NCBI GenBank assembly: GCA_964400575.1
Contig: CAYNVA010000379.1
Location: 1-51,700, forward strand
DNA from: an uncultured Thermodesulfobacteriota bacterium
GTDB lineage: Bacteria > Desulfobacterota > WTBG01 > CAIYCZ01 > CAIRTM01
Direction: 5' to 3'
Length of the DNA stretch: 51,700 nt
In this document: positions 8,741 to 45,598 of the stretch, piece after piece
Position numbering within the stretch: the first letter of the stretch is position 1
Layout of the letters: every line of letters starts with the position of its first letter
Program-made: the position numbers and the translations under genes
Notes under the pieces: model-generated
What the model saw: the letters and a program-made list of their open reading frames with translations, nothing else
What the model was told of the DNA's origin: nothing
The model's database searches: none

Positions 8741-10462
8741 TCACAGGCCCATAAGCTCAGAATAGTCTTGCAGAAGCAGCGTATCGGCCGATTTGATCCG
8801 CTGGGCGCGCATTTTGATACAATGCTCCCGGCCGGCAATAAAAAGGCTGGCCATCTTCAGCTTGCGCGAAGAAGCCCCTGACTGCAGCAGCAGCAGATAG
8901 CCCATGGTAATATCGCAGGCCATGTCGACCAGGTCCCGGCTGCACAGATCCATGCGCTGAGCGTCCGCGGCCGCGTTGAGCACTTCGACCGACTGCTGCA
9001 GAAGCTCACGGCTGTGCTGCAAACGTTTGGCAAGAGCGGCCTGGGGCTTGTCAAACTGCGCTGCGGCAAGTTCCTCGAAATACTTTTCCATGGTGCCGCT
9101 CAGTATGCCGCGAAATGCGCTCATGATCTGCAGCTGCGAGGTGCCCTCATAGATGGTCGTGATGCGGGCGTCGCGGTAATATTTTTCAACGGGATAGTCG
9201 CGCATATAGCCGCTGCCGCCAAGCACCTGCATGGCCGTGCTGGTGACGCGGATACTCATCTCGGAGCAGTAGTATTTGTCAAGGGAGGTCAGCAGCATCA
9301 GGCTGCGCTCATAGCGTTTGGCATCCTTTTTGAGCTGTTTTTTCTCATCAGCTGCAAGCCCGGAAGCTGCAAGCCGCTTGGCGGTGCCCAGTGCCAGATC
9401 CATGACCCGGGCGGTCTCATAGGTAAGGCTGCGCGCGGCTTCAATCTCCATCTGCATGTCCACAAGCATCGCGGCAACGGCAGGCAGCTGCTCGATGCGC
9501 CGGCCATACTGCTTGCGCACGCGGGCATATGCCAGGGCCTCGGAGAATGCGGCCTGCGCAATCCCGACGGCCTGGGCGGCTGTGGCAAGCCGCGCGCCGT
9601 TTAAGAGCGAGAGCGCGTAGGTCATCAGGCCCCGCTGCCGATCGCCGATAATAAAGCCTGGCGCGTCATGAAAGACAAGCTCGCAGGTCGGGGAGCTGTG
9701 AATGCCCAGCTTGTCCTCGATCCTGCGCACGGTTATGGCGGGGCCGGCCTCGCACAGGAAAAGGCTCAGGCCGAGGCCGTCGGTCGTGCCCTCTTCGGAC
9801 CGGGCAAGCACCAGCAGCACCTCTGCGCCGCCATTGGTGATGAACCGTTTGACGCCGTTTAAGCGCCACGAGCCGTCGGGCTGCTCTGCGGCCCGCATTT
9901 TTACATTCTGCAGATCACTGCCGGCCTCTTCTTCGGTGAGGGCCATGGCTCCCGTGACCCTGCCCCGGGCAAACAGCGGCAGATATTTCTCTTTCAGCTC
10001 CTGGCAGGCAAATGTTTCGATGATGCCCGCAATGCCCTGAAGCCCGAAAATATTCTGCAGTCCCGCGTCGGCCCGCGAGATGATCTCAACCAAGATGGTG
10101 AAAATGAAGGTCGGCAGGTTCAGCCCGCCATAGCAGCGCGAGATGCAGCAGCCCATGAGCTCAGCCTGCGTGAGCGCCTGCACGCACCGGACAAGGGCCG
10201 GGCTGTACGCGGTCGCGCCGCTGCGGATCGTGGTATGCTCATCGTCAAGGGACTTGCTCAAGGGCGCCACGATCCGGGCCGCCATATCGCCTGCCAGGCA
10301 GAGCACCCGGCGGTAGTTGTCACGGGCGTCGGCAAGGTCGGCAGGAGCATAGTCAAAGCGGTCATGCTCGCGGAAGCCGTCTTCATACCATGAGATAATG
10401 ACGTCGAGATCCGTGTTTTCGAAAATGAAGGCGAGATCCTGGTTGTCGGTAAAAAAGTTCAT
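8741..10462 (-). CDS. acyl-CoA dehydrogenase (long form with C-terminal extension)
   Basis: 573 aa with ACAD N-terminal, middle and C-terminal motifs (TEEEAGSD, GxKxFITNG, YEGTSQLQ). It sits directly downstream of etfBA. Confidence 0.85.
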   Translation of the reverse strand: MNFFTDNQDLAFIFENTDLDVIISWYEDGFREHDRFDYAPADLADARDNYRRVLCLAGDMAARIVAPLSKSLDDEHTTIRSGATAYSPALVRCVQALTQAELMGCCISRCYGGLNLPTFIFTILVEIISRADAGLQNIFGLQGIAGIIETFACQELKEKYLPLFARGRVTGAMALTEEEAGSDLQNVKMRAAEQPDGSWRLNGVKRFITNGGAEVLLVLARSEEGTTDGLGLSLFLCEAGPAITVRRIEDKLGIHSSPTCELVFHDAPGFIIGDRQRGLMTYALSLLNGARLATAAQAVGIAQAAFSEALAYARVRKQYGRRIEQLPAVAAMLVDMQMEIEAARSLTYETARVMDLALGTAKRLAASGLAADEKKQLKKDAKRYERSLMLLTSLDKYYCSEMSIRVTSTAMQVLGGSGYMRDYPVEKYYRDARITTIYEGTSQLQIMSAFRGILSGTMEKYFEELAAAQFDKPQAALAKRLQHSRELLQQSVEVLNAAADAQRMDLCSRDLVDMACDITMGYLLLLQSGASSRKLKMASLFIAGREHCIKMRAQRIKSADTLLLQDYSELMGL

Positions 10463-10469
10463 GGCGTTT

Positions 10470-11513
10470 TCAGTGGCTCAGGTGCCTGTAGGTGTTTAAT
10501 AGTTTCGGAACGACGTCTTTCACATCGCCGATGATGCCGTAGTGGGCAACGCTGAAAATGGGCGCGTCGGGATCGGTATTGACGGCGATAATTTTGCCCG
10601 ACTCCTGCATGCCTGCCAGATGCTGCACCGCACCCGATATGCCGCAGGCGATATAGAGCTTGGGCCGGACGCTTATGCCGGTCTGGCCAACCTGATACTC
10701 GTGGCCGATGAAGCCCGCATCGACGGCTGCGCGCGTGGCTGCCACCTCGCCCCCGAACGCATGGGCCAGCTGCCGCAGCAGATCGAAGTTTTCCTTCGTG
10801 CCCATGCCCGCGCCCCCTGCCACGATAATGCCGGCGGCTTTGAGATTTACTGTGCGCTGGGTCAGTATGCGCTTGAGCACCGTGGTCTTGATGTCACCCT
10901 CCTGCACGTCGGGCGGGATGTGCATAATATCGCCCCGTGACGAGCGCACGGGCTGGGGCATCTTCATAATGCCTTCACGGATGGTTGCCATCTGGGGCCG
11001 CGTTTCAGGGCTGACGATGGTTGCAATAATATTGCCGCCCCAGGCCGGGCGGATCTGCAGCAGAATATTTGTATACTCCTGCCTGGTTTTGTGGTCGATG
11101 TAGGAGCCGATCTTCAAATCGGTGCAGTCAGCGGTGAGCCCCACGCGCAGGGCTGATGCGATGCGGGGCGCAAGGTCCCGGCCCTGCGGCGTTGCGGCCG
11201 TGAGAAAAATAGCAGGGCGCTTGCTGCGGATGAGCTTGCACAGGGCCTTGGCATAAATCGCCGAGGAATACGGTTCAAGATGGCGGGACTGCAGCACATA
11301 GACCTTCTGGGCTCCGTACATGAGCACCTTTTCGGCAAGCACATCCACTTTGTCACCCGCAAGCACGCCCGCAACGCTCACCTTGAGCACAGCGGCAAGC
11401 TCACAGGCTTTGCCGAGCACTTCAAGGGATGGCTCAATAACGTCCCTGCCCTGATGCTGAATATAGACCCAAACTTCGCCGTCCTGCTCCATGGGATATG
11501 CTCTGTCAGTCAA
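10470..11513 (-). CDS. etfA: electron transfer flavoprotein alpha subunit
   Basis: 347 aa with the C-terminal FAD-binding region (GISGAVQHLAGM, IIAVNTDPDAPIF). Confidence 0.9.
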   Translation of the reverse strand: MTDRAYPMEQDGEVWVYIQHQGRDVIEPSLEVLGKACELAAVLKVSVAGVLAGDKVDVLAEKVLMYGAQKVYVLQSRHLEPYSSAIYAKALCKLIRSKRPAIFLTAATPQGRDLAPRIASALRVGLTADCTDLKIGSYIDHKTRQEYTNILLQIRPAWGGNIIATIVSPETRPQMATIREGIMKMPQPVRSSRGDIMHIPPDVQEGDIKTTVLKRILTQRTVNLKAAGIIVAGGAGMGTKENFDLLRQLAHAFGGEVAATRAAVDAGFIGHEYQVGQTGISVRPKLYIACGISGAVQHLAGMQESGKIIAVNTDPDAPIFSVAHYGIIGDVKDVVPKLLNTYRHLSH

Positions 11514-12366
11514 AGGTATAGTCTGCTATAAGTTCTTCAAGCAGCAGCCGTATGCCGTCATCACCCGGATCGATCTTTTTAAAATCCCTGCCCGTGAGCA
11601 CCACGCTCTCAATTTTCTGTACGCGCGTAGGAGAGCCTGCAAGCCCGCACATCGGGGCATCCACGCCGATGGTCCGGGCGCTCCATTCTTCAATAAGCAG
11701 CCCGCGGCAGGCAAGCTCGCCCGGGGCTGCGCCGGGGGCAAGCTCCGAAGGCGTCCTGGCGTTTTTAAAGCGCATGATCCGCTTTGCTGAAAACGGTCGC
11801 GGCATGTTGGCTGTGCAGCTTACGGTCAGCAGCACCGGGAGCTTTGATTCGGCAAGCTCGCGCCCATCCTCGACTTCGCGCCAGCAGGAGCATTTCAGGT
11901 CATCCACCTGATCGATCTGGTCGACATAGGTTATCTGGTTCATATCGAGCTTTTCAGCCACCTGCGGCCCGACCTGGGCCGTATTGCCGTCGATGGCCTG
12001 ACGGCCGCACAGGACGAGATCGACCGCCCCCAGATGCCTGATGGCCTGGCTGAGAACATAGGATGTTGCAAGGGTATCGGAGCCTGCAAAAATCCGGTCG
12101 GTGAGCAGGATTGCGCGGTCTGCGCCCATGTAGAGCGCCTCGCGAAGCACCTCGGCGGCATGGGCCGGCCCCATGGTGAGCACCGTGACCGAAGCGCCGC
12201 AGCGGTCCTTAAGATCAAGGGCCATTTCAAGGGCGTTCATGTCCTCGGGGTTGAAAACCGCGGGCAGGGCCGAGCGGTTCAGCGTGCCGTCATCCTTCAT
12301 GGCATGCGTGGAAACAGCCGTTGTGTCGGGCACCTGTTTGATAAGTACAGCAATGCTGAGCGGCAT
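11506..12366 (-). CDS. etfB: electron transfer flavoprotein beta subunit
   Basis: The N-terminus IAVLIKQVPDT and NPEDMNALEMAL are typical EtfB motifs. It overlaps the etfA start by 8 nt. Confidence 0.9.
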   Translation of the reverse strand: MPLSIAVLIKQVPDTTAVSTHAMKDDGTLNRSALPAVFNPEDMNALEMALDLKDRCGASVTVLTMGPAHAAEVLREALYMGADRAILLTDRIFAGSDTLATSYVLSQAIRHLGAVDLVLCGRQAIDGNTAQVGPQVAEKLDMNQITYVDQIDQVDDLKCSCWREVEDGRELAESKLPVLLTVSCTANMPRPFSAKRIMRFKNARTPSELAPGAAPGELACRGLLIEEWSARTIGVDAPMCGLAGSPTRVQKIESVVLTGRDFKKIDPGDDGIRLLLEELIADYTFD

Positions 12367-12448
12367 ATATAATAAGCAGTGAATAATTTAAAATTGTTGC
12401 TCAGTATAGGCATTGCACAATTGCCTGTCAATACTTAAACCAATGATG

Positions 12449-12572
12449 TTTAATCGCACCGCTCGCTTTTTTGCCCGGACGCCCCGGCCCACAACTTGCG
12501 GCTGATTTTATATTGACACACAATCCCCCTCAGCCTATATTCGCCCCGGCTCAAAGCGGGTTCCTGTCAATT
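12449..12572 (+). repeat. promoter-bearing interspersed repeat, copy 1
   Basis: Aligns along its length with 18076-18199 and, as reverse complement, with copies 3-6. Confidence 0.85.
12513..12541 (+). promoter_or_regulatory. consensus sigma70-type promoter inside repeat copy 1
   Basis: TTGACA (12513-18), 17 nt spacer, TATATT (12536-41). Confidence 0.65.
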
Positions 12573-12662
12573 CTCATCATGTCGCCCTTCCTTATATGCT
12601 TCGCCTGAAGGCGCGGCGGGTTCAACCTTGCCAGTGCGCAGCGCTCAGTTCTGCATAACACA

Positions 12663-12780
12663 ATAAAGGGGGCTGAACAGCTATTCACCCTGAGGTATCC
12701 AAGGGCGACCGGCATTGGCTCATGCTTCGATACCTCAGGGTGAACCGTAAAAGAAGCACCGGAGAAACCGGCCCCTTTAT
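12663..12780. other. nested hairpin element
   Basis: The outer arms are ataaagggggc and gcccctttat. The inner stem is a perfect 16 bp pairing, ttcaccctgaggtatc (12684-99) with gatacctcagggtgaa (12729-44). Confidence 0.6.
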
Positions 12781-12794
12781 CGTATGATGTTGTA

Positions 12795-13499
12795 CTAAGG
12801 TGCTTTATAGTCGATCATCTCAATGTAGCGCTTCGGTGTGCCGGGAGGGCCTTCGGGCCCCTTGTACATGACCATATAGTGCGGTGGTTTGACGGTGTAC
12901 CACAATTCAAGCTCCGGCAGAATGGTGGCAAAGAATCCATCAATTCCAAATTCAAGTTTGTAGCATTCTATATCGCTACCGTTAATTTTGACTCGTTCCC
13001 GATCTTTATTCCTGACGCAAAGGTTGAATTTCCCCCCCCCGCTCCCGCCGTAATACCTGATGCTGATTTTATTTTTTGATTCAAAAGGAAATCCCCTTAA
13101 TAAATGCGTTAAAGCAACAAAGTGGGGTACTGTAACAGCATCATCCCTGGTGTTAGGTTTCGTGTCCCTGATAATGAGTTTGGAGTCCAGGGTCGCAGCG
13201 TCATATTTTTGGATGGTGTGGACAGAGGATACCGTCATATCCTTTCTGTCAATACGAATATAAGTATCCAACGCCGGCGACCGGGAAGAAATTTCGTATA
13301 AGGTCTTTTGCCCCTCGCTGATTAAGATAATTTGTTCCTCCATGATTATGGTTTTGCCTTCGCTCTGGCTTCTGTATGTAATTGTTTCACCGTTGGGTAT
13401 CTCAGGGTCAAGAAACTGAAAGCCCGCCCAACTGATATCACCGATGAGCGCCGGCAGGAAAGCCATCCAGAAGACAAACAGTGTTGAGCGAAAATTCAT
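12795..13499 (-). CDS. exported hypothetical protein
   Basis: ATG 13499 is preceded by AAGGTGG. A hydrophobic signal-like N-terminus is present. The gene looks AT-rich. Confidence 0.6.
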   Translation of the reverse strand: MNFRSTLFVFWMAFLPALIGDISWAGFQFLDPEIPNGETITYRSQSEGKTIIMEEQIILISEGQKTLYEISSRSPALDTYIRIDRKDMTVSSVHTIQKYDAATLDSKLIIRDTKPNTRDDAVTVPHFVALTHLLRGFPFESKNKISIRYYGGSGGGKFNLCVRNKDRERVKINGSDIECYKLEFGIDGFFATILPELELWYTVKPPHYMVMYKGPEGPPGTPKRYIEMIDYKAP

Positions 13500-13540
13500 A
13501 GTAACGACCACCTTCATACAGCATATCCAAAAGACGATAT

Positions 13541-15913
13541 TCAGTTAATTATATCCGGCTGTTCATGCACGATGATTTCTCCCTTATATCCGTCGACTGC
13601 AACGATGGTACCGTCAATCAGGGAACATGCTCCGTCAATAGAAGTGATGGCAGGGATTTTATATTCACGGGCGAGAATGGAACAGTGGGAAAGAATGCCG
13701 CCCGCTTCAGAAATGATCGCGCCAGCTTTAGCAAACAAGGGCGCCAGCCCTATATCTGAATAAGGTATTACGAGAATATCACCCTGATGCATTTTTATAT
13801 GTTCCTTGATGCCGTTAACGACTTTCACGCGCCCGCAATAATATCCACGAGATGTGGCGATGCCTTTAAAAGAGCTTTTTTTCGAAAGTCCAGCAGGAGG
13901 TTCCTGGTCGCCGTAAATAATATTCGGTAGTTCTATATTTTTATATTGGGCGATTTCCTGTTTGCGCCTGGCAATTGCCTTTATGTGCGAGTCGCTAAAA
14001 ACACCCGAATATGCGATTTCTTTAATTTCATCAAAAAACAGAAGGAAAATGTCCTCTGTTGTTTCAATATATCCTTTTTGTTTATATAAAACGCCCATAT
14101 TCAAAAACAAATTTCTTAACAGACCATAACTATAGGTATAAAGATAACTGACCGCTTCCTTATATCTTCTGTTTCTTTGAACCTTTTTAAGGGTTATGTG
14201 CAGCAGCCATTTTTTGAAAAAGGGGACATGTTTCAGGATATCGATATCCTGATGGGTCGATTGGTTCATTTGATTTTCATAGTTCGCTACAATGTGCAAT
14301 ATTAAAGCCGGGGTCTCCCGCCAGGGCGGGCAGGAGAAGTCATTGCCACTGTCGCTGACATGTCCAAACCGTTCCAAAAAACCGGCCATCTCAGCTTTGA
14401 AACCGTCAATACCTTGTAACGGTAAAAAATCATTGTATGAGATCTTTTTTATTTTCTCTTGCTGTACGGGGCTGAGTTTTCTAAATTGTTTATGCAGCCT
14501 GTGCAAATGCATGGTGGGGTCAAAATTTTCCAGATCTTTTGCGTCCCCAACCCTCGCCAGAGCTTCAGCATCAAACCCTTGTTGAGCAAGCAGGGTTCTG
14601 AGCAGATAGGTGAACACATACAGAATGAGCGGTGTTACAAGGTAGTAATAGCTGATCTCTGCGGTCAGCTTTAATAAGCCTTCAATTTTTTTCAATAGTT
14701 GTTTTTCAGTCAACCGGGCAGGATCAGCGGTACCGAAGCCCTTAATTTTAACTTCCATTTCTTTTAAAAAAGGATCCAGCTTTCTGGAAAATCTTATTTT
14801 GTCCAAAATGAATAAAAATACTCGCGGCACGAATATAAGGGACCGCAGTCCCGGCCGGTAGTACAGCTTTTTCGAACGATCCATGTCACCGCTGAAAAGC
14901 GTATGTAATGTTTTATTTGAAAACCCAAGCTGTTTGAAAATACTTTCGATCACACCGGTATTAAAGTACGCTCGATAATAAAATGCTTTTGCCAGACGAA
15001 GGGCATCAAGGTCATTGGGACCGAGCATCTCAGTCAGCATTGCAATCCAGGCGCCGTTAATCAGGGGGATGTTAATCGACCAGACGAGCGGCTTGATGAT
15101 GCCGGGTAGAAACTCCTTTGAAAAATTATTTGTGTAGACATTAACTGACTGCACTACGGTTATTTCTCGCAATTGCAGCCAGTATAACTCCTGACCATTA
15201 AAGCACCATTCGAGATCAAGGGGTTTCCCATAGCGCCGTGAGATCTTTTTTGACTGTCTGACCAGCCGAGCAATAACTTTTCTGGATAGTATGTTTCTGC
15301 CGGGTTCTTCCACATACTCATCCTGATCGATAATCCAGCGAAAAGGGGTTCTGCCGCTCTGAAAAAGTCCTTCACCATTATCCTTGACGGCCTCAATAAT
15401 CGTTTCATTATGGCCGGTCACCGGGTTTCTGGTAAAGACGACTCCGGCGAAAACTGCTGTAACCATCTCCTGAATGATGACAGCCATCAGAAAATCGTTT
15501 GATTGTGCGCCCGTTTTATTGATATAGGACCGAACCTGCTCCGAATCCGCTTTTTGCCAGACAGTTTCGATGGCATTCATGACAGCATCGACGCCCTGTA
15601 CATTCAGCACAGTTGTGAAAAGGCCCGCGTAGGAATACTGGCTGTTGTCCTCGCGGTTCGATGAAGAACGGACAGCAAAGGTTTTATTATTGTTTGCTAT
15701 TGGAAATAGCGCGTCGCGAACCGCTTTTTTGGTTTCATCGGGATGGGATAAAAAGTTTTTATACGCCTCCCAGGTGCAGATATATGTCTCAGGGATGCTG
15801 CACTGAGAATCGCGGAGAAAAAGAAGCGAACGGGCTTTGTTGCCGATTGGGGAATTGCTGGAGCAATCGCTCAGTTTGACAATATACTCAAGTGCCATAA
15901 GCCATTCCATCAA
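13541..15913 (-). CDS. PEP-utilising enzyme family phosphotransferase (PpsA / rifampicin-phosphotransferase-like architecture)
   Basis: 790 aa. It has an N-terminal PEP/pyruvate-binding ATP-grasp region and a C-terminal swivel domain with GGILSHCSILAREYKIPAI (phospho-His). Confidence 0.75.
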   Translation of the reverse strand: MMEWLMALEYIVKLSDCSSNSPIGNKARSLLFLRDSQCSIPETYICTWEAYKNFLSHPDETKKAVRDALFPIANNNKTFAVRSSSNREDNSQYSYAGLFTTVLNVQGVDAVMNAIETVWQKADSEQVRSYINKTGAQSNDFLMAVIIQEMVTAVFAGVVFTRNPVTGHNETIIEAVKDNGEGLFQSGRTPFRWIIDQDEYVEEPGRNILSRKVIARLVRQSKKISRRYGKPLDLEWCFNGQELYWLQLREITVVQSVNVYTNNFSKEFLPGIIKPLVWSINIPLINGAWIAMLTEMLGPNDLDALRLAKAFYYRAYFNTGVIESIFKQLGFSNKTLHTLFSGDMDRSKKLYYRPGLRSLIFVPRVFLFILDKIRFSRKLDPFLKEMEVKIKGFGTADPARLTEKQLLKKIEGLLKLTAEISYYYLVTPLILYVFTYLLRTLLAQQGFDAEALARVGDAKDLENFDPTMHLHRLHKQFRKLSPVQQEKIKKISYNDFLPLQGIDGFKAEMAGFLERFGHVSDSGNDFSCPPWRETPALILHIVANYENQMNQSTHQDIDILKHVPFFKKWLLHITLKKVQRNRRYKEAVSYLYTYSYGLLRNLFLNMGVLYKQKGYIETTEDIFLLFFDEIKEIAYSGVFSDSHIKAIARRKQEIAQYKNIELPNIIYGDQEPPAGLSKKSSFKGIATSRGYYCGRVKVVNGIKEHIKMHQGDILVIPYSDIGLAPLFAKAGAIISEAGGILSHCSILAREYKIPAITSIDGACSLIDGTIVAVDGYKGEIIVHEQPDIIN

Positions 15914-16151
15914 TTTTATTAATCGTCTGTGATAAAGTATAAATCAAATACAGGTCCTAAGTGTGCCCGGCTTTTCCCCGACCGTAAAGATTTTGCTGCA
16001 TGGCGGCCATAGTATGCTTAACAACAAGAACCACAGGACAATTGCAGAGACAAACTAATTATAAAACGCACCTGTCACAACGGCCGAACCGTCAAAAACC
16101 CCTGTGCGGGTCAGCCGGCAGGGCTCTATGTTCAAGCAGAAAATAAAACGA

Positions 16152-16820
16152 TCAAACCGGGAAAAATATTCGGGAAATCTTTTTAAAACTTCCCATTAAC
16201 GCCTTTTTGTTTAATGGATCGCTGTTAAAAATTTGATAATAGTTATAGTCATCAAGCTTCAATCTGTTGTTTATAAAAATTGTCAGACTTAAAAATAGGC
16301 AGAAGGTTGTAAAGTAAACATCGTTTTCGACGAGGTGAAATATAACCGGCAACAATAAGATGGGTATCGTTTTTATTTTAGGATTGTTTTTTGAGATAAA
16401 AACAACAGCAGCCCATACGACGAGTAATAGCATACATGCATAAGGCGACAGAATCAGCAGGCTCCAGACGGCCACCGTAGTTCCCTTACCCCCTTTGCCT
16501 TTGAGAAAGATTGAAAAACTGGTGCCCAAAAACGCAAGATATACAAATAGCAGTGTTACGTTCAGATTGCCCTCAAATACATATTTAGCGGTCAGAATGG
16601 GAAAGACAGCCTTGGTTATTTCCCCTCCTACCGTAAAAATTCCAACGGCCATGCCACCCGCTTTAAACGCATTGGTGACGCCGATATTGCCGGTGCCTTC
16701 TTTGGCCAGGTTTCTTTTTTTGAACAGCCAGGTGGCGATGCATGCATAGGGCAGAGCGCCATAGAGATATGCCGCAATTGCAAAAAGTGTTAATTGCAGG
16801 TAGTCCAAATTGGTCCTCAT
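16152..16820 (-). CDS. PlsY-family (glycerol-3-phosphate acyltransferase-like) membrane protein
   Basis: GTGNIGVTNAFKAGG and KGGKGTT motifs in a polytopic membrane protein. The internal ATG 16820 is chosen as start. Confidence 0.65.
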   Translation of the reverse strand: MRTNLDYLQLTLFAIAAYLYGALPYACIATWLFKKRNLAKEGTGNIGVTNAFKAGGMAVGIFTVGGEITKAVFPILTAKYVFEGNLNVTLLFVYLAFLGTSFSIFLKGKGGKGTTVAVWSLLILSPYACMLLLVVWAAVVFISKNNPKIKTIPILLLPVIFHLVENDVYFTTFCLFLSLTIFINNRLKLDDYNYYQIFNSDPLNKKALMGSFKKISRIFFPV

Positions 16821-16931
16821 AAGTAAAGTCAAAACCACCTGCACAGCCGGGGGTGGCCTGTTCTCGGTCTGAAAGGGGGCCAATCAAAGACACAGAGCGT
16901 TTGCATTGCCTATTCCGGGAAAAAACAAAAA

Positions 16932-17639
16932 TTATTTTTTGGTGCGAATGCCGCACAGCTGTTTCCAAAACAGGACAACCATCGCAACAATTAAAAAAGC
17001 AACGACTGACAAAACAATTATATCCTTTGAAACACCTTTTTCCAAAACAATTTTAAATTGATCACCGACGACCGTCATGATTATCACAGAGGGTGCGATA
17101 CCGATAATGGTTCCCGCAGCATATTTCATGAAGGGTATATGAAAAGCCCCCGCAAGAAGATTGGTCACGGTATAGGGCGCTGCCGGCAGGAGTCGCGAAA
17201 AAACAATGGCCAGGAAGCTATGCCGTGAAAGTATTTGTCTGACCTTGTGCAGTCGATTGCCCTGCAGGACAGCAATTGTTTTTTGGTTAAAATAATATCC
17301 CAGCATATATAAAACCGTCGCATTGACAAACAAGGCAATCAAAGAATAGCAAAAACCCTCTGCGGGTCCAAAGACAAAAGCTGTTGCGGGAATGAGAATG
17401 ACAATCGGGAACGCAACAAGCCCGCTAATGGTATATACGAAGACAACTGCCAGACACGCCCGCAGGCGTGAATCAAAAAAAAGGGATGAAGATAAAATAT
17501 TTTCTATGTCGATCAGCTTTCCCAGTGGGGTGAAACGCCAGGCAAAGGAGAGGAGGATAAGCATGAGTATCATGAATACCCATAGAATCAACCGAACTTT
17601 CGTTGCCAGCGAGCTTTCTTTTTCCAACAATGCTTTCAT
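16932..17639 (-). CDS. TVP38/TMEM64 (DedA-related) family membrane protein
   Basis: 235 aa polytopic protein with FRLLPAAPYTVTNLLAG-type motifs. Confidence 0.65.
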   Translation of the reverse strand: MKALLEKESSLATKVRLILWVFMILMLILLSFAWRFTPLGKLIDIENILSSSLFFDSRLRACLAVVFVYTISGLVAFPIVILIPATAFVFGPAEGFCYSLIALFVNATVLYMLGYYFNQKTIAVLQGNRLHKVRQILSRHSFLAIVFSRLLPAAPYTVTNLLAGAFHIPFMKYAAGTIIGIAPSVIIMTVVGDQFKIVLEKGVSKDIIVLSVVAFLIVAMVVLFWKQLCGIRTKK

Positions 17640-18039
17640 TTGGATTTTTTAAAAAACTCTCGTAGCTGAGAGCACGGTTTGTCTGAATGCACCGGTTTGC
17701 TCACGGAATTTTCCATTTCGATTTGCATCGGTTATTCCGCGGCATAAAAACAGAATTCTCCGAAACTCCGGGCCAGAGCATTTCTCAAAAAAATACCGTC
17801 ATAATTCTGATGAACTTTTGGTGAGAACAGCCCGCGGGGTTCAAGCTATGATCCTCAGAATTCTATATGGACGAGCTTTTCCCCTCATATGACTGCGCCG
17901 ACCCTGATTATCCCTTTGAAGCCTCTCTGTGATTTGAAAAATCAGGCTTCCCGTGAGGGGTGCATACAAAAACAGCTCTCAAAAAAACCAATCTTATCTA
18001 CCGGGATGCCCCGCCTTGTAGGCGGGGAGCATCACCTAT

Positions 18040-18199
18040 CGCCACACTATCAGACGATGCAGCGCGCCACAACTTTTTAATCGCATCGCTCGCTTTTTTG
18101 CCCGGACGCCCCGGCCCATATCCTGTGGCTGATTTTATATTGACACACAATCCCCCTCAGCCTATATTCGCCCCAGCTCAAAGCGGGTTCCTGTCAATT
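18040..18199 (+). repeat. promoter-bearing interspersed repeat, copy 2 (long form)
   Basis: 18076-18199 is nearly identical to copy 1. 18040-18075 matches the extra segment (ccacaNatcagac...) seen in copies 5 and 6. Confidence 0.85.
18140..18168 (+). promoter_or_regulatory. consensus sigma70-type promoter inside repeat copy 2
   Basis: TTGACA (18140-45), N17, TATATT (18163-68). It faces the ORF starting at 18232. Confidence 0.65.
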
Positions 18200-18231
18200 G
18201 CCAAAACAACTCCTGCAATGAAAGGATACGC

Positions 18232-19023
18232 ATGGGAATTTTTTTCGTCTGCAGTGCAGCTTTCTTATGTTTGCTCCTCCTCGCGGCCATTTTATATGTG
18301 CGTACAGTACGGTCAGCGGCACAGTCCCTGTACGAACGTTACAACCGTTATGCGCGGCAGGTATTCTCAGAACACTTTGTTTTGCAGCCGGACCGGGTCA
18401 GGCCGGAATACCGCACGCTTCATCCGTGGAAAGCCCTCAAGCTGATTAGGATTGCCGTTGAACCCTGTCGCTCAGACAGATTCAGAAGAATCGGCATTGT
18501 CGATGCTACCCTGGGGTTTGCGGGAAAGATGTTTACTCTGTGTATCCAGCCTGACTACGGCTATAATCTGCCGGTCTTTGATCTTGAGGTTATCATTATG
18601 GGAAGCAGGCGGATTTTTGTCATCGAGTTTATTGATGCTGCCGGTGTATCCGACGATTATAAAGACCTGTGCTACGGCCGGATGAGGGCATTGAAGCTCC
18701 GGAGCCCAAAGCTTCAGGAGTTGCCCGTGACCCGGTGGTACCGGGATGTAGTTCCGGATTTCAGCATCCATGCCCGGGCACACTCCGATCAGGATGAGGA
18801 GCTTTTTACCCTCTTTCAGCACTATCTTGATGCCTATGTGGATATGGCGAAGCATGCCCCGCCAGCAAGCCAAGAAGTCCGGGCTCAGCTGCGCAGGGGC
18901 ATGGTGTGGTATACCGATACGCTTATAGAAAAAGGCGGCCCTGCCACAGATGTTTTCAAAATGCTTTTAGGAACGGAAGGAATGAAAGAGTATGTCAGAA
19001 CGGTCATGTTTTCCATTGACTGA
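18232..19023 (+). CDS. membrane-anchored hypothetical protein, possibly ferredoxin-dependent bilin reductase-like
   Basis: N-terminal TM helix. YNLPVFDLEVIIMG...FIDAAGV and the C-terminal LLGTEGMKEYVRTVMF resemble, from memory, the PiFGxDxV...DLxP and FGxEWxExYxxxxxF motifs of FDBRs. AAAGGA lies upstream of the ATG. Confidence 0.4.
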   Translation: MGIFFVCSAAFLCLLLLAAILYVRTVRSAAQSLYERYNRYARQVFSEHFVLQPDRVRPEYRTLHPWKALKLIRIAVEPCRSDRFRRIGIVDATLGFAGKMFTLCIQPDYGYNLPVFDLEVIIMGSRRIFVIEFIDAAGVSDDYKDLCYGRMRALKLRSPKLQELPVTRWYRDVVPDFSIHARAHSDQDEELFTLFQHYLDAYVDMAKHAPPASQEVRAQLRRGMVWYTDTLIEKGGPATDVFKMLLGTEGMKEYVRTVMFSID

Positions 19024-19193
19024 ACCGGCTCTGATCATCCTGCTGCCTGGGGGGGTTCAGGCATGGCAGGCCGCAACTTCAGGCATCCTCCAAAATCAAA
19101 ATAATCAGGCAACACCCCCCTTGCCCCTAATTTTCCAATACCTCAAACAGCTGATGATCGGGTAATTTTTTTCCGATTGTGCCCGACCCCGGA

Positions 19194-19222
19194 TTGACGC
19201 CCGCCGACGCGACTGGTAGAAT
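19194..19222 (+). promoter_or_regulatory. sigma70-type promoter
   Basis: TTGACG (19194-99), 17 nt spacer, TAGAAT (19217-22). It ends 26 nt upstream of ATG 19249. Confidence 0.55.
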
Positions 19223-19248
19223 GACCGCATTTTAAAGAGTAGAAAAAA

Positions 19249-20211
19249 ATGCCCGGGTATCAAAAACTCCTGCAAACAGGCGAGCTTGACCGGCGCGCTG
19301 AAGCGCTCACGGCGCTTGCCGCTGCCTGCAGGCTCTGCCCGTGGCGCTGCGGCATTAACAGGCTCAGGGGCGAAAGGGGCCGCTGCAAAGCCGGTCCTTC
19401 GGTGCGTGTTGCAAAGGCCCTTGCCCATTTCGGGGAGGAGCCCGTCATAACAGGCTCTCGTGGCTCAGGCACTGTTTTTTTTGCGCACTGCAACCTCCTG
19501 TGCTGCTTCTGCCAGAACTGGCAGATCAGCCACGAGGGGCTGGGCACGGACATGACCGTTGAGCAGCTTGCAGCCCTCATGTACATGCTTCAGCAGCAGG
19601 GCTGCCACAACATAAATCTTGTGTCAGCCGCGCATTTCATGCCCTGGGTCGTGCAGGCCCTTGGCCTGGCAGCGGCCCGGGGGCTGACGCTTCCGGTTGT
19701 GTACAACTCAAACGGGTATGAAGATGTTGAGATGCTCGGGCTTCTGGATGGCATAGTGGATATCTATCTGCCCGATGCCAAATACGGGGATGACGGCTGC
19801 GCTGAAAAATATTCGGCAGCCCGCAGCTATCATGAGGTTAATTTTGCAGCCCTTGACGAGATGTTCCGGCAGGCGGGCTACCTCGAGCTGGATGACGCGG
19901 GAATCGCCCGCAAAGGGCTTATCGTGCGGCACCTCGTGCTGCCCGCCGCTCTGGCAGAAACCGAGGCCATACTGCGCAGGCTCAAACACCATTTCGGCCG
20001 CTATCTCAGCATAAGCCTTATGGGCCAGTACCGGCCCTGCTACCGGGCCGATTGCTTCACGGAGCTTCAGGCGCAGACCCCGCCGCAGGAGTATGCCGCA
20101 GCTGTTGCCATGTTTGAAGAGCTTGGTTTTGAAAACGGCTGGACGCAGCAGCACGACGGGCTTGACGGCAGCTTCGTGCCCGATTTCAGAAAGAAGGATT
20201 CATGGCGTTGA
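19249..20211 (+). CDS. radical SAM protein, PflX-like (pyruvate formate-lyase activase homolog)
   Basis: N-terminal CRLCPWRCGINR..G..G.C motif plus the CNLLCCFCQN radical SAM cluster. Confidence 0.75.
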   Translation: MPGYQKLLQTGELDRRAEALTALAAACRLCPWRCGINRLRGERGRCKAGPSVRVAKALAHFGEEPVITGSRGSGTVFFAHCNLLCCFCQNWQISHEGLGTDMTVEQLAALMYMLQQQGCHNINLVSAAHFMPWVVQALGLAAARGLTLPVVYNSNGYEDVEMLGLLDGIVDIYLPDAKYGDDGCAEKYSAARSYHEVNFAALDEMFRQAGYLELDDAGIARKGLIVRHLVLPAALAETEAILRRLKHHFGRYLSISLMGQYRPCYRADCFTELQAQTPPQEYAAAVAMFEELGFENGWTQQHDGLDGSFVPDFRKKDSWR

Positions 20212-41750: not shown

Positions 41751-41757
41751 GCATTAA

Positions 41758-41890
41758 CTGATAGGAACTTGCTACGGGATGGGTTGAATATAAGAACGAG
41801 GGCGATTGTGTGTCAAGATTAATGTCGGCGCAAGATATGGGATGAGGTTTTTGGGGCGGCCTGCGATGAGGTGTTATGTCAACCGGCAAA
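41758..41890 (-). repeat. promoter-bearing interspersed repeat, copy 3
   Basis: ctgataggaacttgctacgggatggg...gattgtgtgtcaa core. Relative to copy 5 it has an internal deletion of about 45 bp. Confidence 0.8.
41787..41816 (-). promoter_or_regulatory. sigma70-type promoter inside repeat copy 3
   Basis: On the minus strand: TTGACA (41816-11), then TTATAT at N17 or TATATT at N18. It points into the convergent gene 40806..41750. Confidence 0.5.
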
Positions 41891-42559: not shown

Positions 42560-42704
42560 TATCTTGCAGCTCGGCGGGCGGTTTGATCTTCGGCGGCGGT
42601 CGTTTTTGCATTTCCCACAGCCCCAGGTGCTGCAATATGTGTTTTACTACTTCGGGCTGATCTATGACGCTGATGAACATAGCACGGGCTAACGAATCAA
42701 AAGC
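42555..42704 (-). pseudogene. 3' relic of a transposase gene (C-terminus recalls IS91/Y2-type transposases)
   Basis: My translation is AFDSLARAMFISVIDQPEVVKHILQHLGLWEMQKRPPPKIKPPAELQDI-stop. An upstream in-frame stop is present. The stop codon sits inside the gattaaa end of repeat copy 4. Confidence 0.45.
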
Positions 42705-45405: not shown

Positions 45406-45598
45406 CTGATAGGAACTTGCTACGGGATGGAACTTGCTACGGGATGGGTTGAATATAGAACGAGGGCGATTGTGTGTCAAGATTAATGTCGGCGCAAGAT
45501 GTTGGATGGGGTTTTGGGTGCGGCCTGCGATTTAGAAATAAAAAATCTTGGGGCGCGGCGGGCGCCTCTGATATGTGGTGTTATGTAAACCCGAAAGG
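45406..45598 (-). repeat. promoter-bearing interspersed repeat, copy 5 (long form)
   Basis: It has the core plus the extended segment. A 17 bp tandem duplication, aacttgctacgggatgg x2, occupies 45414-47. Confidence 0.85.
45452..45480 (-). promoter_or_regulatory. consensus sigma70-type promoter inside repeat copy 5
   Basis: On the minus strand: TTGACA (45480-75), N17, TATATT (45457-52). It faces the protease gene. Confidence 0.6.

Follow-up and report, generated by a model that had tools for sequence, protein, structure and literature searches.

A strain-variable gene module lies between direct copies of an IS91-family element end in an uncultured Thermodesulfobacteriota bacterium

The stretch of DNA analysed here (hereafter, the window) comprises positions 1 to 51,700 of contig CAYNVA010000379.1 from an uncultured Thermodesulfobacteriota bacterium (GenBank assembly GCA_964400575.1), and at 12449-18199 it carries a four-gene module bracketed by two copies of a dispersed, promoter-bearing repeat. 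We hold it to be quite probable that a 5,627-bp unit, i.e., one repeat plus 12573-18075, is a horizontally acquired, strain-variable cargo cassette that has direct copies of the oriIS-side end of an IS91-family insertion sequence (IS) as its ends and varies through recombination at these repeats. Close strains without exactly this block keep a single repeat, which marks the repeats as the entry or exit point of the block. Gain or loss of a gene block is thereby mapped precisely to a repeat in uncultured sediment bacteria, with both alleles in hand, and the case joins IS91/ISCR-type gene capture, "mobile promoters" of unknown origin, and strain-level cassette turnover.

Copy 1 (12449-12572) and the corresponding part of copy 2 (18076-18199) are in direct orientation and nearly identical, as a preliminary description of the window had noted: 118 of 124 bases match, in identical runs of 10, 32, 1, 1, 2, 48, and 24 nucleotides (nt). 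They are the most similar pair of a dispersed family, the other members of which are 70-84% identical to them. Copy 2 is a full-length oriIS-side end (18046-18199, plus strand) that extends ~30 nt further at its 5' side, in register with the family; its TTGACA (18140-45) and TATATT (18163-68) boxes belong to a putative promoter pointing at a bilin-reductase-like gene at 18232. Copy 1, also on the plus strand, is a 5'-truncated oriIS-side end with TTGACA at 12513-18, a 17-nt spacer, TATATT at 12536-41, and a leader reading ...AAAGCGGGTTCCTGTCAATT. At 12446-12449, it abuts the etf operon promoter (TTGACA-17-TATACT; 12403-12431, minus strand), part of a conserved left flank for which homology with congeners and with the empty-site strain reaches ~12443-12448.

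The preliminary description had proposed looking in relatives for an empty site with a single repeat, and two contigs carry exactly that. Contig L057 (Ga0315287_10126162, JGI 3300032397, 2,937 nt), recovered when metagenomes were scanned for the bilin-reductase-like protein, matches the window at 98.1% identity over 10368-12572 and 18085-18935; its order is etfA, etfB, etf promoter, one repeat, and bilin-reductase-like gene, with no module. Contig L060 (ENA ERZ27248036, k141_150344, 4,356 nt), from a separate assembly, has an identical junction, and the flanks of both contigs are 98.1% identical to the window (left 2.2-3.5 kb, right 0.85-0.94 kb). The difference between the alleles amounts to exactly one repeat and the interval, which locates the joint in or at the repeats. 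Relative to both window copies, the single repeat of the empty allele has private features, namely a 5-nt deletion, TTGACACCC, and CAATCGCCC, with two substitutions in all.

The occupied allele was found in four places, i.e., the window, L020 (Ga0393267_0000525, 99.89% identical), SRR12667042, and L067 (Ga0393262_0009391), which together stand for three or more strain backgrounds, L020 and SRR12667042 being grouped as one. Contigs of SRR12667042 break inside the repeats, at the sole polymorphic site, and at the right-hand junction of the third strain, contigs stop within copy 2. Between strains, the module diverges by 0-0.23%, compared to 0.2-1.8% for the flanks. None of the 20 sites at which L020 differs from the window falls in 11131-19663, with 0 in the 5,751-nt repeat-to-repeat interval vs 20 in the 12,208 nt outside it (p = 5e-4). 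For L067, 11 of 604 positions mismatch in the etfB flank, compared to 8 of 3,834 in repeat plus cargo (Fisher p = 7e-6), with 0 mismatches in copy 1 and the adjacent spacer and 8 in 3,488 nt of module; the module is thus 8-fold less diverged than the flank. Of the 11 flank mismatches, 6 are common to the empty-site strain; the last lies at 12394, and divergence switches between 12394 and 12455, i.e., at the left edge of copy 1. From the mismatch distribution in both strains, the module together with copy 1 is much younger than the split of the chromosomal backgrounds. This low divergence fits a recent spread of the cassette through the population; alternatively, empty-type DNA could have been imported into the flank, with the tract forced to end at the repeat.

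The preliminary description had listed four minus-strand genes in the interval (TVP38-like, PlsY-like, phosphoenolpyruvate [PEP]-utilising, and exported), and open reading frames (ORFs) and domain matches bear this out. They are (i) a VTT/DedA (TVP38-like) membrane protein, by domain match (16932-17639), (ii) a PlsY-like membrane protein (16152-16883; PF02660), (iii) a 790-amino-acid dikinase resembling rifampin phosphotransferase and PEP synthase, with ATP-grasp PPDK_N, Rph_4th, and PEP-utilizers His swivel domains (13541-15913), and (iv) a 240-amino-acid protein that is anchored or exported, having a hydrophobic anchor at its N-terminus and a weak match to DUF3108 (E 0.004, under the Pfam cutoff; 12795-13517). 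Compared to 2477 long ORFs of the 3.74-Mb, 657-contig assembly (mean GC content 0.537, sd 0.048), these genes (0.424-0.458) lie at the 2.5th-6.5th percentile, whereas the flanking acd/etfA/etfB and radical-SAM/rimO genes (0.594-0.611) lie at the 92nd-97.5th. The greater AT-richness claimed for the four genes relative to the flanks is borne out. Low GC content is restricted to these genes and does not extend to the spacers, with values of 0.54 for 12573-12794 and 0.47 for 17640-18075. Further low-GC patches occur in the window at 25-27.5, 38.5-40, 45-46.5, and 48-49 kb.

The proposal that the segment was acquired as a unit is upheld by the distribution of its genes, by an interrupted adjacency of the flanking genes, and by the lower divergence of the module. 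For the dikinase, no homologue was detected at E <= 1e-20 in four congeners (76-87% complete). Its nearest homologues are found in a low-GC sister genus (g6), at 65% amino acid and 73% nucleotide identity in genome G014 and 54% in genome G009. In the homologous loci of these two genomes (GC content 0.31-0.50), the PlsY-like, dikinase, and 245-amino-acid genes are contiguous, and the 240-amino-acid protein of the window is 68% identical to the 245-amino-acid protein after the dikinase in G009. Every other dikinase homologue, a partial second copy of this genome among them, shows 40-44% identity; a search of 5.8 billion proteins returned nothing above 67% outside the dikinase's own cluster, and a scan of the genome collection with the dikinase as query gave no match. 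The preliminary description had held that relatives with the module genes but no repeats, together with average composition, would refute acquisition; this test came out in its favour, as the conspecific contigs L057 and L060 carry exactly the empty site with one repeat. The partial second copy (contig C495, 624-2165; 44% identical) covers query residues 271-784 only, resembles the "order-wide" type, and may be either native or bin contamination.

In at least eight genomes from other genera within the family and order, the radical SAM gene of the conserved right flank (19249-20211, plus strand) and etfB directly adjoin one another as divergent neighbours, 140-330 nt apart (140 nt in G005). This adjacency implies that ~12.37-19.25 kb is all inserted material, the bilin-reductase-like gene included. 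The bracket drawn in the preliminary description thus stands as a strain-variable unit, but compared to other genera the insertion is wider. The bilin-reductase-like gene downstream of copy 2 (18232-19023, plus strand; 263 amino acids, ferredoxin-dependent type, membrane-anchored) is present in the occupied and empty alleles alike and absent from the ancestral etfB/radical-SAM junction, and its product is without a close congener orthologue (best 38-40% identity, with 46-48% to more distant genera). Proteins of this Fe_bilin_red-like type form a paralogous family; 30 of 41 related genomes have matches, between 1 and 7 per genome and mostly 3-7, and neither a heme oxygenase nor a phytochrome gene was noticed near the gene in question.

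The repeat family numbers ~58 copies in this genome and 39-72 in the four congeners, as counted by BLAST and a sequence-only Infernal model built from 28 copies. Counts are 0-35 for the remaining genomes of the family and order, and reach 31 for those of other families of the class. In its consensus, an inverted pair (CGCAAGATAT...ATATCTTGCG) and an A/T-rich stretch are followed by TTGACA-17 nt-TATATT, the spacer of which is conserved, and by a ~30-nt leader, also conserved (CCCATCCCAAAGCGAGTTCCTATCA(A/G)T). The inverted pair lies upstream of the -35 box in most copies and is degenerate in copies 1 and 2. The two copies and the etf promoter are the three top sigma-70 matches in 12.2-19.3 kb, each at 11/12. 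A co-oriented ORF follows within 300 nt in 34 of the 35 copies carrying core and leader; the exception is copy 1, which faces the 3' end of the module. Genes downstream of the copies are unrelated to each other, with examples including M6 proteases, methyltransferases, a major facilitator superfamily transporter, a hybrid sensor kinase, an antitoxin or toxin-antitoxin pair, a lytic transglycosylase, and a fatty-acid isomerase-like protein. The repeat is without terminal inverted repeats, its ends instead being direct-repeat-like (CATATCAGA 5', CCTATCAGT 3'), and in this it departs from miniature inverted-repeat transposable elements (MITEs). A reading of the upstream inverted repeat as attC-like, or as part of an invertible promoter, was set aside by eye, the stem being ~10 bp and the promoter not enclosed by it.

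The parent IS presumed in the preliminary description does exist, and a remnant of its transposase gene abuts copy 2. About a dozen copies of the repeat are preceded by a conserved stretch encoding ...PSYD.ADPDYPFEA.L and a stop, and longer upstream fragments encode ...CPQCQGAMKIISFIDQPEVVKNILQHLGLWE... In the congener G004, this stretch is the C-terminus of an intact 463-amino-acid ORF with Zn_Tnp_IS91 and Y2_Tnp domains, with the repeat starting ~90-130 nt past the transposase stop; in G015, a 461-amino-acid open frame lies upstream of the repeat in the same arrangement. Window positions 17855-18199 are collinear with the 3' end of the G004 element, running from the last ~16 codons of the transposase (17882-17932, plus strand; last codons and stop, PSYDCADPDYPFEASL) through the 3' untranslated stretch and a ~58-nt insert to copy 2. 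Given the congener ORFs and this collinearity, the "promoter repeat" represents an IS91-family element's oriIS-side end, which persists mostly in solo form. No intact transposase was detected in this 90%-complete genome by tblastn with a congener transposase, only remnants of 62 amino acids or fewer. As for a terIS, 12573-12794 is unlike the IS left ends of G004 and of contig C207. Bases past the conserved end, CCTATCA(A/G), differ among copies, with neither GTTC nor CTTG next to the oriIS end; this lowers confidence in a canonical choice of target, not in homology. The thought that the element ends before an internal GTTC, with a resident GTTC as IS91 target, was abandoned on account of the junction at contig C367, comparison of which with congeners puts GTTCCTATCA inside the element. 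No target-site duplication was seen at the locus, consistent with the IS91 family.

In the mechanism that we propose, one solo end would drive the bilin-reductase-like gene beside the etf promoter, and the cargo would have come attached to a second, fuller copy keeping the 3' remnant of the transposase gene. Recombination in or at the 124-nt repeats would then interconvert the occupied (repeat-cargo-repeat) and empty (one repeat) forms. The likeliest route would be homologous recombination of the RecA type with a crossover within the first ~42 nt, whether as Campbell-type entry of a circle or as deletion between direct repeats, and the unit made up of cargo and IS 3' end would still have its likely origin in IS91-type capture. 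RecA-dependent recombination between short direct repeats, yielding deletion or Campbell-type integration, is known in bacteria. The present alleles, differing by one repeat and its interval, are of the kind that such events leave, and the shared runs of 32 and 48 nt are longer than the minimal processing segment that has been reported for Escherichia coli; by contrast, the exchange is here deduced from alleles, and a role for a transposase is possible.

Several observations weigh against the cassette reading. At positions 43-51 of the repeat, the empty allele agrees with copy 2 (ATATCCTGTGG) and not with copy 1, the sequence of which (ACAACTTGCGG) recurs in another family member; at position 100, it agrees with copy 1 (G) and not with copy 2 (A). 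Insertion and deletion alike would account for these markers, given a crossover within 1-42 and either one additional mutation or a later micro-conversion, and the pattern favours neither polarity. The putative promoter of the repeat, of consensus sigma-70 type, points outward, and no sigma-70-like match that might serve the module was found in 17640-18075. Small host-typical repeats make up a patchwork between the module and copy 2; from their position beside the cargo, a close relative would probably be the immediate donor, as opposed to the original low-GC source. For the empty allele, the evidence comes from two short contigs (2.9 and 4.4 kb), possibly of one sample. That these are repeat-collapse chimeras is unlikely, given that the longest exact run shared by the copies is 48 nt and that one of the assemblies was made at k=141, i.e., greater than the repeat length.

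The alternative with the strongest claim, though we consider it improbable, is that a transposase made the joint, with the occupied allele arising by rolling-circle or one-ended transposition of the IS91 type instead of homologous recombination. Replication would have started from oriIS at 18199 and run through a since-deleted transposase gene and the module, with HUH-type insertion at the nick site of the resident solo end; the empty allele would be a later deletion. IS91-family elements have distinct oriIS and terIS ends and are described as making no target duplication and as undergoing one-ended transposition with single-stranded circular intermediates (PMC13181058), which suits a repeat that is itself such an oriIS-side end, with copy 2 retaining a transposase 3' remnant and the 3' edge of the duplication coinciding with that of the element. 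Intact transposase genes of congeners could work in trans, and in contig C207 the N- and C-terminal transposase remnants 6.1 kb apart suggest cargo within an IS shell. Such a course is, however, difficult to reconcile with the lack of an intact transposase in the 90%-complete genome, with a left side (12573-12794) holding no recognisable terIS and resembling neither IS left end examined, and with the absence of GTTC or CTTG after the element end, the internal GTTC belonging to the element by the C367 junction. The occupied alleles, young and near-identical, are moreover already without a transposase gene, and the copy-2-like sequence of the empty repeat at 43-51 would be expected solely from an empty allele formed by secondary deletion.

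A reading without any mobility, in which two independent solo ends flank resident genes, have been homogenised by gene conversion, and appear "empty" in contigs that are assembly collapses, strikes us as very improbable. It could draw on the unusual likeness of other family neighbours in the window (41793-41867 vs 45457-45531, at 93%), on a cluster of four differing bases in copy 1 that resembles micro-conversion from another copy, and on the shortness of the empty-site contigs. Yet the same junction with its private variants (the 5-nt deletion and two substitutions) was recovered in two assemblies, one with k beyond the repeat length, and the reading leaves aside the foreign composition of the module, a dikinase without homologue in four congeners, and the 8-fold lower divergence of the module in L067. 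Still less credible is a composite transposon, integrase-type island, or integron-like cassette moving by its own transposase or recombinase, for all that direct repeats at both ends, foreign composition, and strain variability might call one to mind. This is contradicted by gene content, the unit having only four ORFs of at least 200 amino acids, none of which encodes a transposase, integrase, or recombinase. There is likewise no tRNA gene in the window, and neither terminal inverted repeats nor a short target duplication at the unit, the flanking repeats of which are 124-155-nt IS ends plus a transposase remnant of ~50 nt as opposed to complete IS copies.

Comparison with ISCR1 and IS91 elements in complex class 1 integrons is instructive for the cassette reading. 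In ISCR1 contexts, the bracketing direct repeats are duplicated 3' conserved segments (3'-CS), and the accepted model is rolling-circle capture followed by homologous recombination. Common to both systems are a Y2 HUH transposase gene that precedes a terminal region containing a palindrome and outward promoter(s), both putative in the present family, cargo genes of mixed kind downstream of the end in promoter orientation, and cargo bracketed by direct repeats. In contrast, here the IS ends themselves do the bracketing, the module points against the promoters, and no GTTC or CTTG adjoins the end. Moreover, the cargo is putatively lipid-related instead of consisting of resistance genes, the TTGACA-17-TATATT core is near-perfect and followed by a conserved leader, and solo oriIS-side ends number dozens per genome across a class of uncultured Thermodesulfobacteriota. 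Solo copies before unrelated genes resemble the functional outward promoters (POUT) in the oriIS region of ISCR1, from which variable genes downstream are driven (PMC6218425). Should the solo ends be active as promoters, ~40-70 genes per genome in the genus would stand under one IS-derived expression signal, providing a route for the expression of newly acquired genes.

The family also bears comparison to putative mobile promoters, i.e., near-identical upstream sequences before unrelated genes, the source of which is not known (Matus-Garcia, Nijveen and van Passel 2012; PMC3575422). Shared with these are similar sequences of at least 50 nt upstream of non-homologous genes in one genome, common to genera, families, and orders. 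Such promoters are defined by at least 80% identity over at least 50 nt upstream of non-paralogues, and in the repeat family many copy pairs reach 80% or more over 57-124 nt. It differs in that the survey left the mobilising mechanism open for most families, whereas here the source is an IS91-family end, and in that one pair of copies is here tied to a presence/absence polymorphism.

Elsewhere, other loci also place variable DNA at these ends. Contig C367 of the same genome carries a 2.2-kb block at 11961-14177, composed of an 80-amino-acid transposase remnant with an end, 1.4 kb of cargo, and a 23-amino-acid remnant with an end; the block replaces a 175-nt, terminator-containing intergenic region that is repeat-free in the congeners G001 and G002, and its right edge is the exact 3' end of the element. 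Synteny between the window and congeners breaks off at 41756, flush with an orphan copy at 41757-41850. From there to 46656 runs an array of four minus-strand IS-end copies before a TylF-type methyltransferase, an M6 metalloprotease, and a ParE/antitoxin pair, with a transposase C-terminal remnant at 42606-42674; the array is closed by the orphan copy, which faces a conserved convergent gene. All conspecific contigs recovered for the 41.7-46.6-kb array have the same arrangement, and in contig C320 variable stretches lie near ends without being flush with them. Contig C207 (2341-9948), also of this genome, has an N-terminal (amino acids 1-55) and a C-terminal (402-463) transposase remnant on one strand, separated by 6.1 kb and with a downstream IS end; an IS shell with cargo in it is a possible interpretation. 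As individual cases and not a systematic survey, these loci are suggestive of a general role of the ends in cassette turnover.

A bolder proposal, which we regard as doubtful, is that solo oriIS-side ends are working parts of a cassette system driven by HUH transposases, beyond being decayed scars that donate promoters. Were this true, any DNA between two direct ends would be mobilisable, with rolling-circle replication starting at one end and terminating at the next, and each resident end would be both an insertion site and a ready, strong promoter. This would amount to a functional analogue of the integron without integrase or attC, across a whole class of sediment Thermodesulfobacteriota. 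Compatible with the proposal are the arrays of ends and genes (that at 41.7-46.6 kb and several in congeners), the orphan ends that border arrays, the coincidence of synteny breaks with ends, the block in C367, and the polymorphism described here.

As to the cargo itself, the dikinase has the parts of the rifampin phosphotransferase (RPH)/PEP synthase-like dikinases (PMC4844700), namely ATP-grasp, the substrate-binding region (Rph_4th), and the C-terminal His swivel. It is without the PEP/pyruvate TIM-barrel domain, scores far under every NCBIfam equivalog cutoff, and, in a difference from RPH, is partnered with a PlsY-like membrane domain, to which it is fused in other taxa. Fusions of this kind, of ~1000 amino acids, are numerous in the search of 5.8 billion proteins, occur across many metagenomic lineages, and include P0027 and P0053, with one labelled Bathyarchaeia. 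The module's PlsY-like protein is a good match to its Pfam family, but its TIGR00023 score of 79 bits lies below the equivalog cutoff of 137 and it is thus PlsY-like, not PlsY proper. In G009, a tight trio of PlsY-like, dikinase, and DUF3108-like genes lies beside WYL, TspO, and CIA30 genes. Judging from domains, the PlsY-like protein, RPH-like dikinase, and DUF3108-like protein probably form a conserved, uncharacterised, lipid-related pathway, and the cargo may encode an uncharacterised membrane-lipid pathway.

The remaining features are of smaller scale. The spacer 12573-12794 is unique, has no further copy in the genome or in relatives and no Rfam match, and forms part of the variable unit; it contains a long hairpin (12684-12703/12725-12744, 95% complementary) and, on the minus strand at 12772-12758, a terminator-like hairpin for the module. 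Transcription from the orphan promoter of copy 1 would cover this 222-nt sequence with the hairpin at 12684-12744 (minimum free energy z-score -2.9), and the predicted transcript would enter the 3' end of the module antisense. Over the whole window, Rfam at gathering thresholds gave nothing, and a relaxed search of 12380-12850 returned chance miRNA-like matches on the palindrome only. A candidate degenerate third repeat left of copy 1 (CCTGTCAAT at 12424-12443) proved to be the -35 box of the minus-strand etf promoter, which is conserved in G003.

Upstream of copy 2, 17768-17849 is a MITE-like repeat fragment (~45 dispersed copies, 72-76% identity) that resembles half of a 178-nt element with GAGCATTTTTC terminal inverted repeats. 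An additional complete copy of the 178-nt element is present in the 99.9% identical strain L020 at window position ~5657 (L020 17959-18138), indicating that this MITE-like element varies between strains. The insert in the IS 3' end (17977-18035) is a small element of ~58 nt with a GC hairpin (CCCCGCCTTGTAGGCGGGG) and dispersed copies: ~20 in this genome at 88-98% identity, with others at 95-97% in the congeners G002 and G003 and at 89-91% in several sites of G009, a member of another genus. Such conservation suggests a miniature element that was active recently. In G003 (contig C25, 2370-2480), a short ORF like the helix-turn-helix N-terminus of a transposase or integrase lies beyond the etf promoter, at the position of the copy 1 junction; this spot was thus apparently struck independently within the genus.

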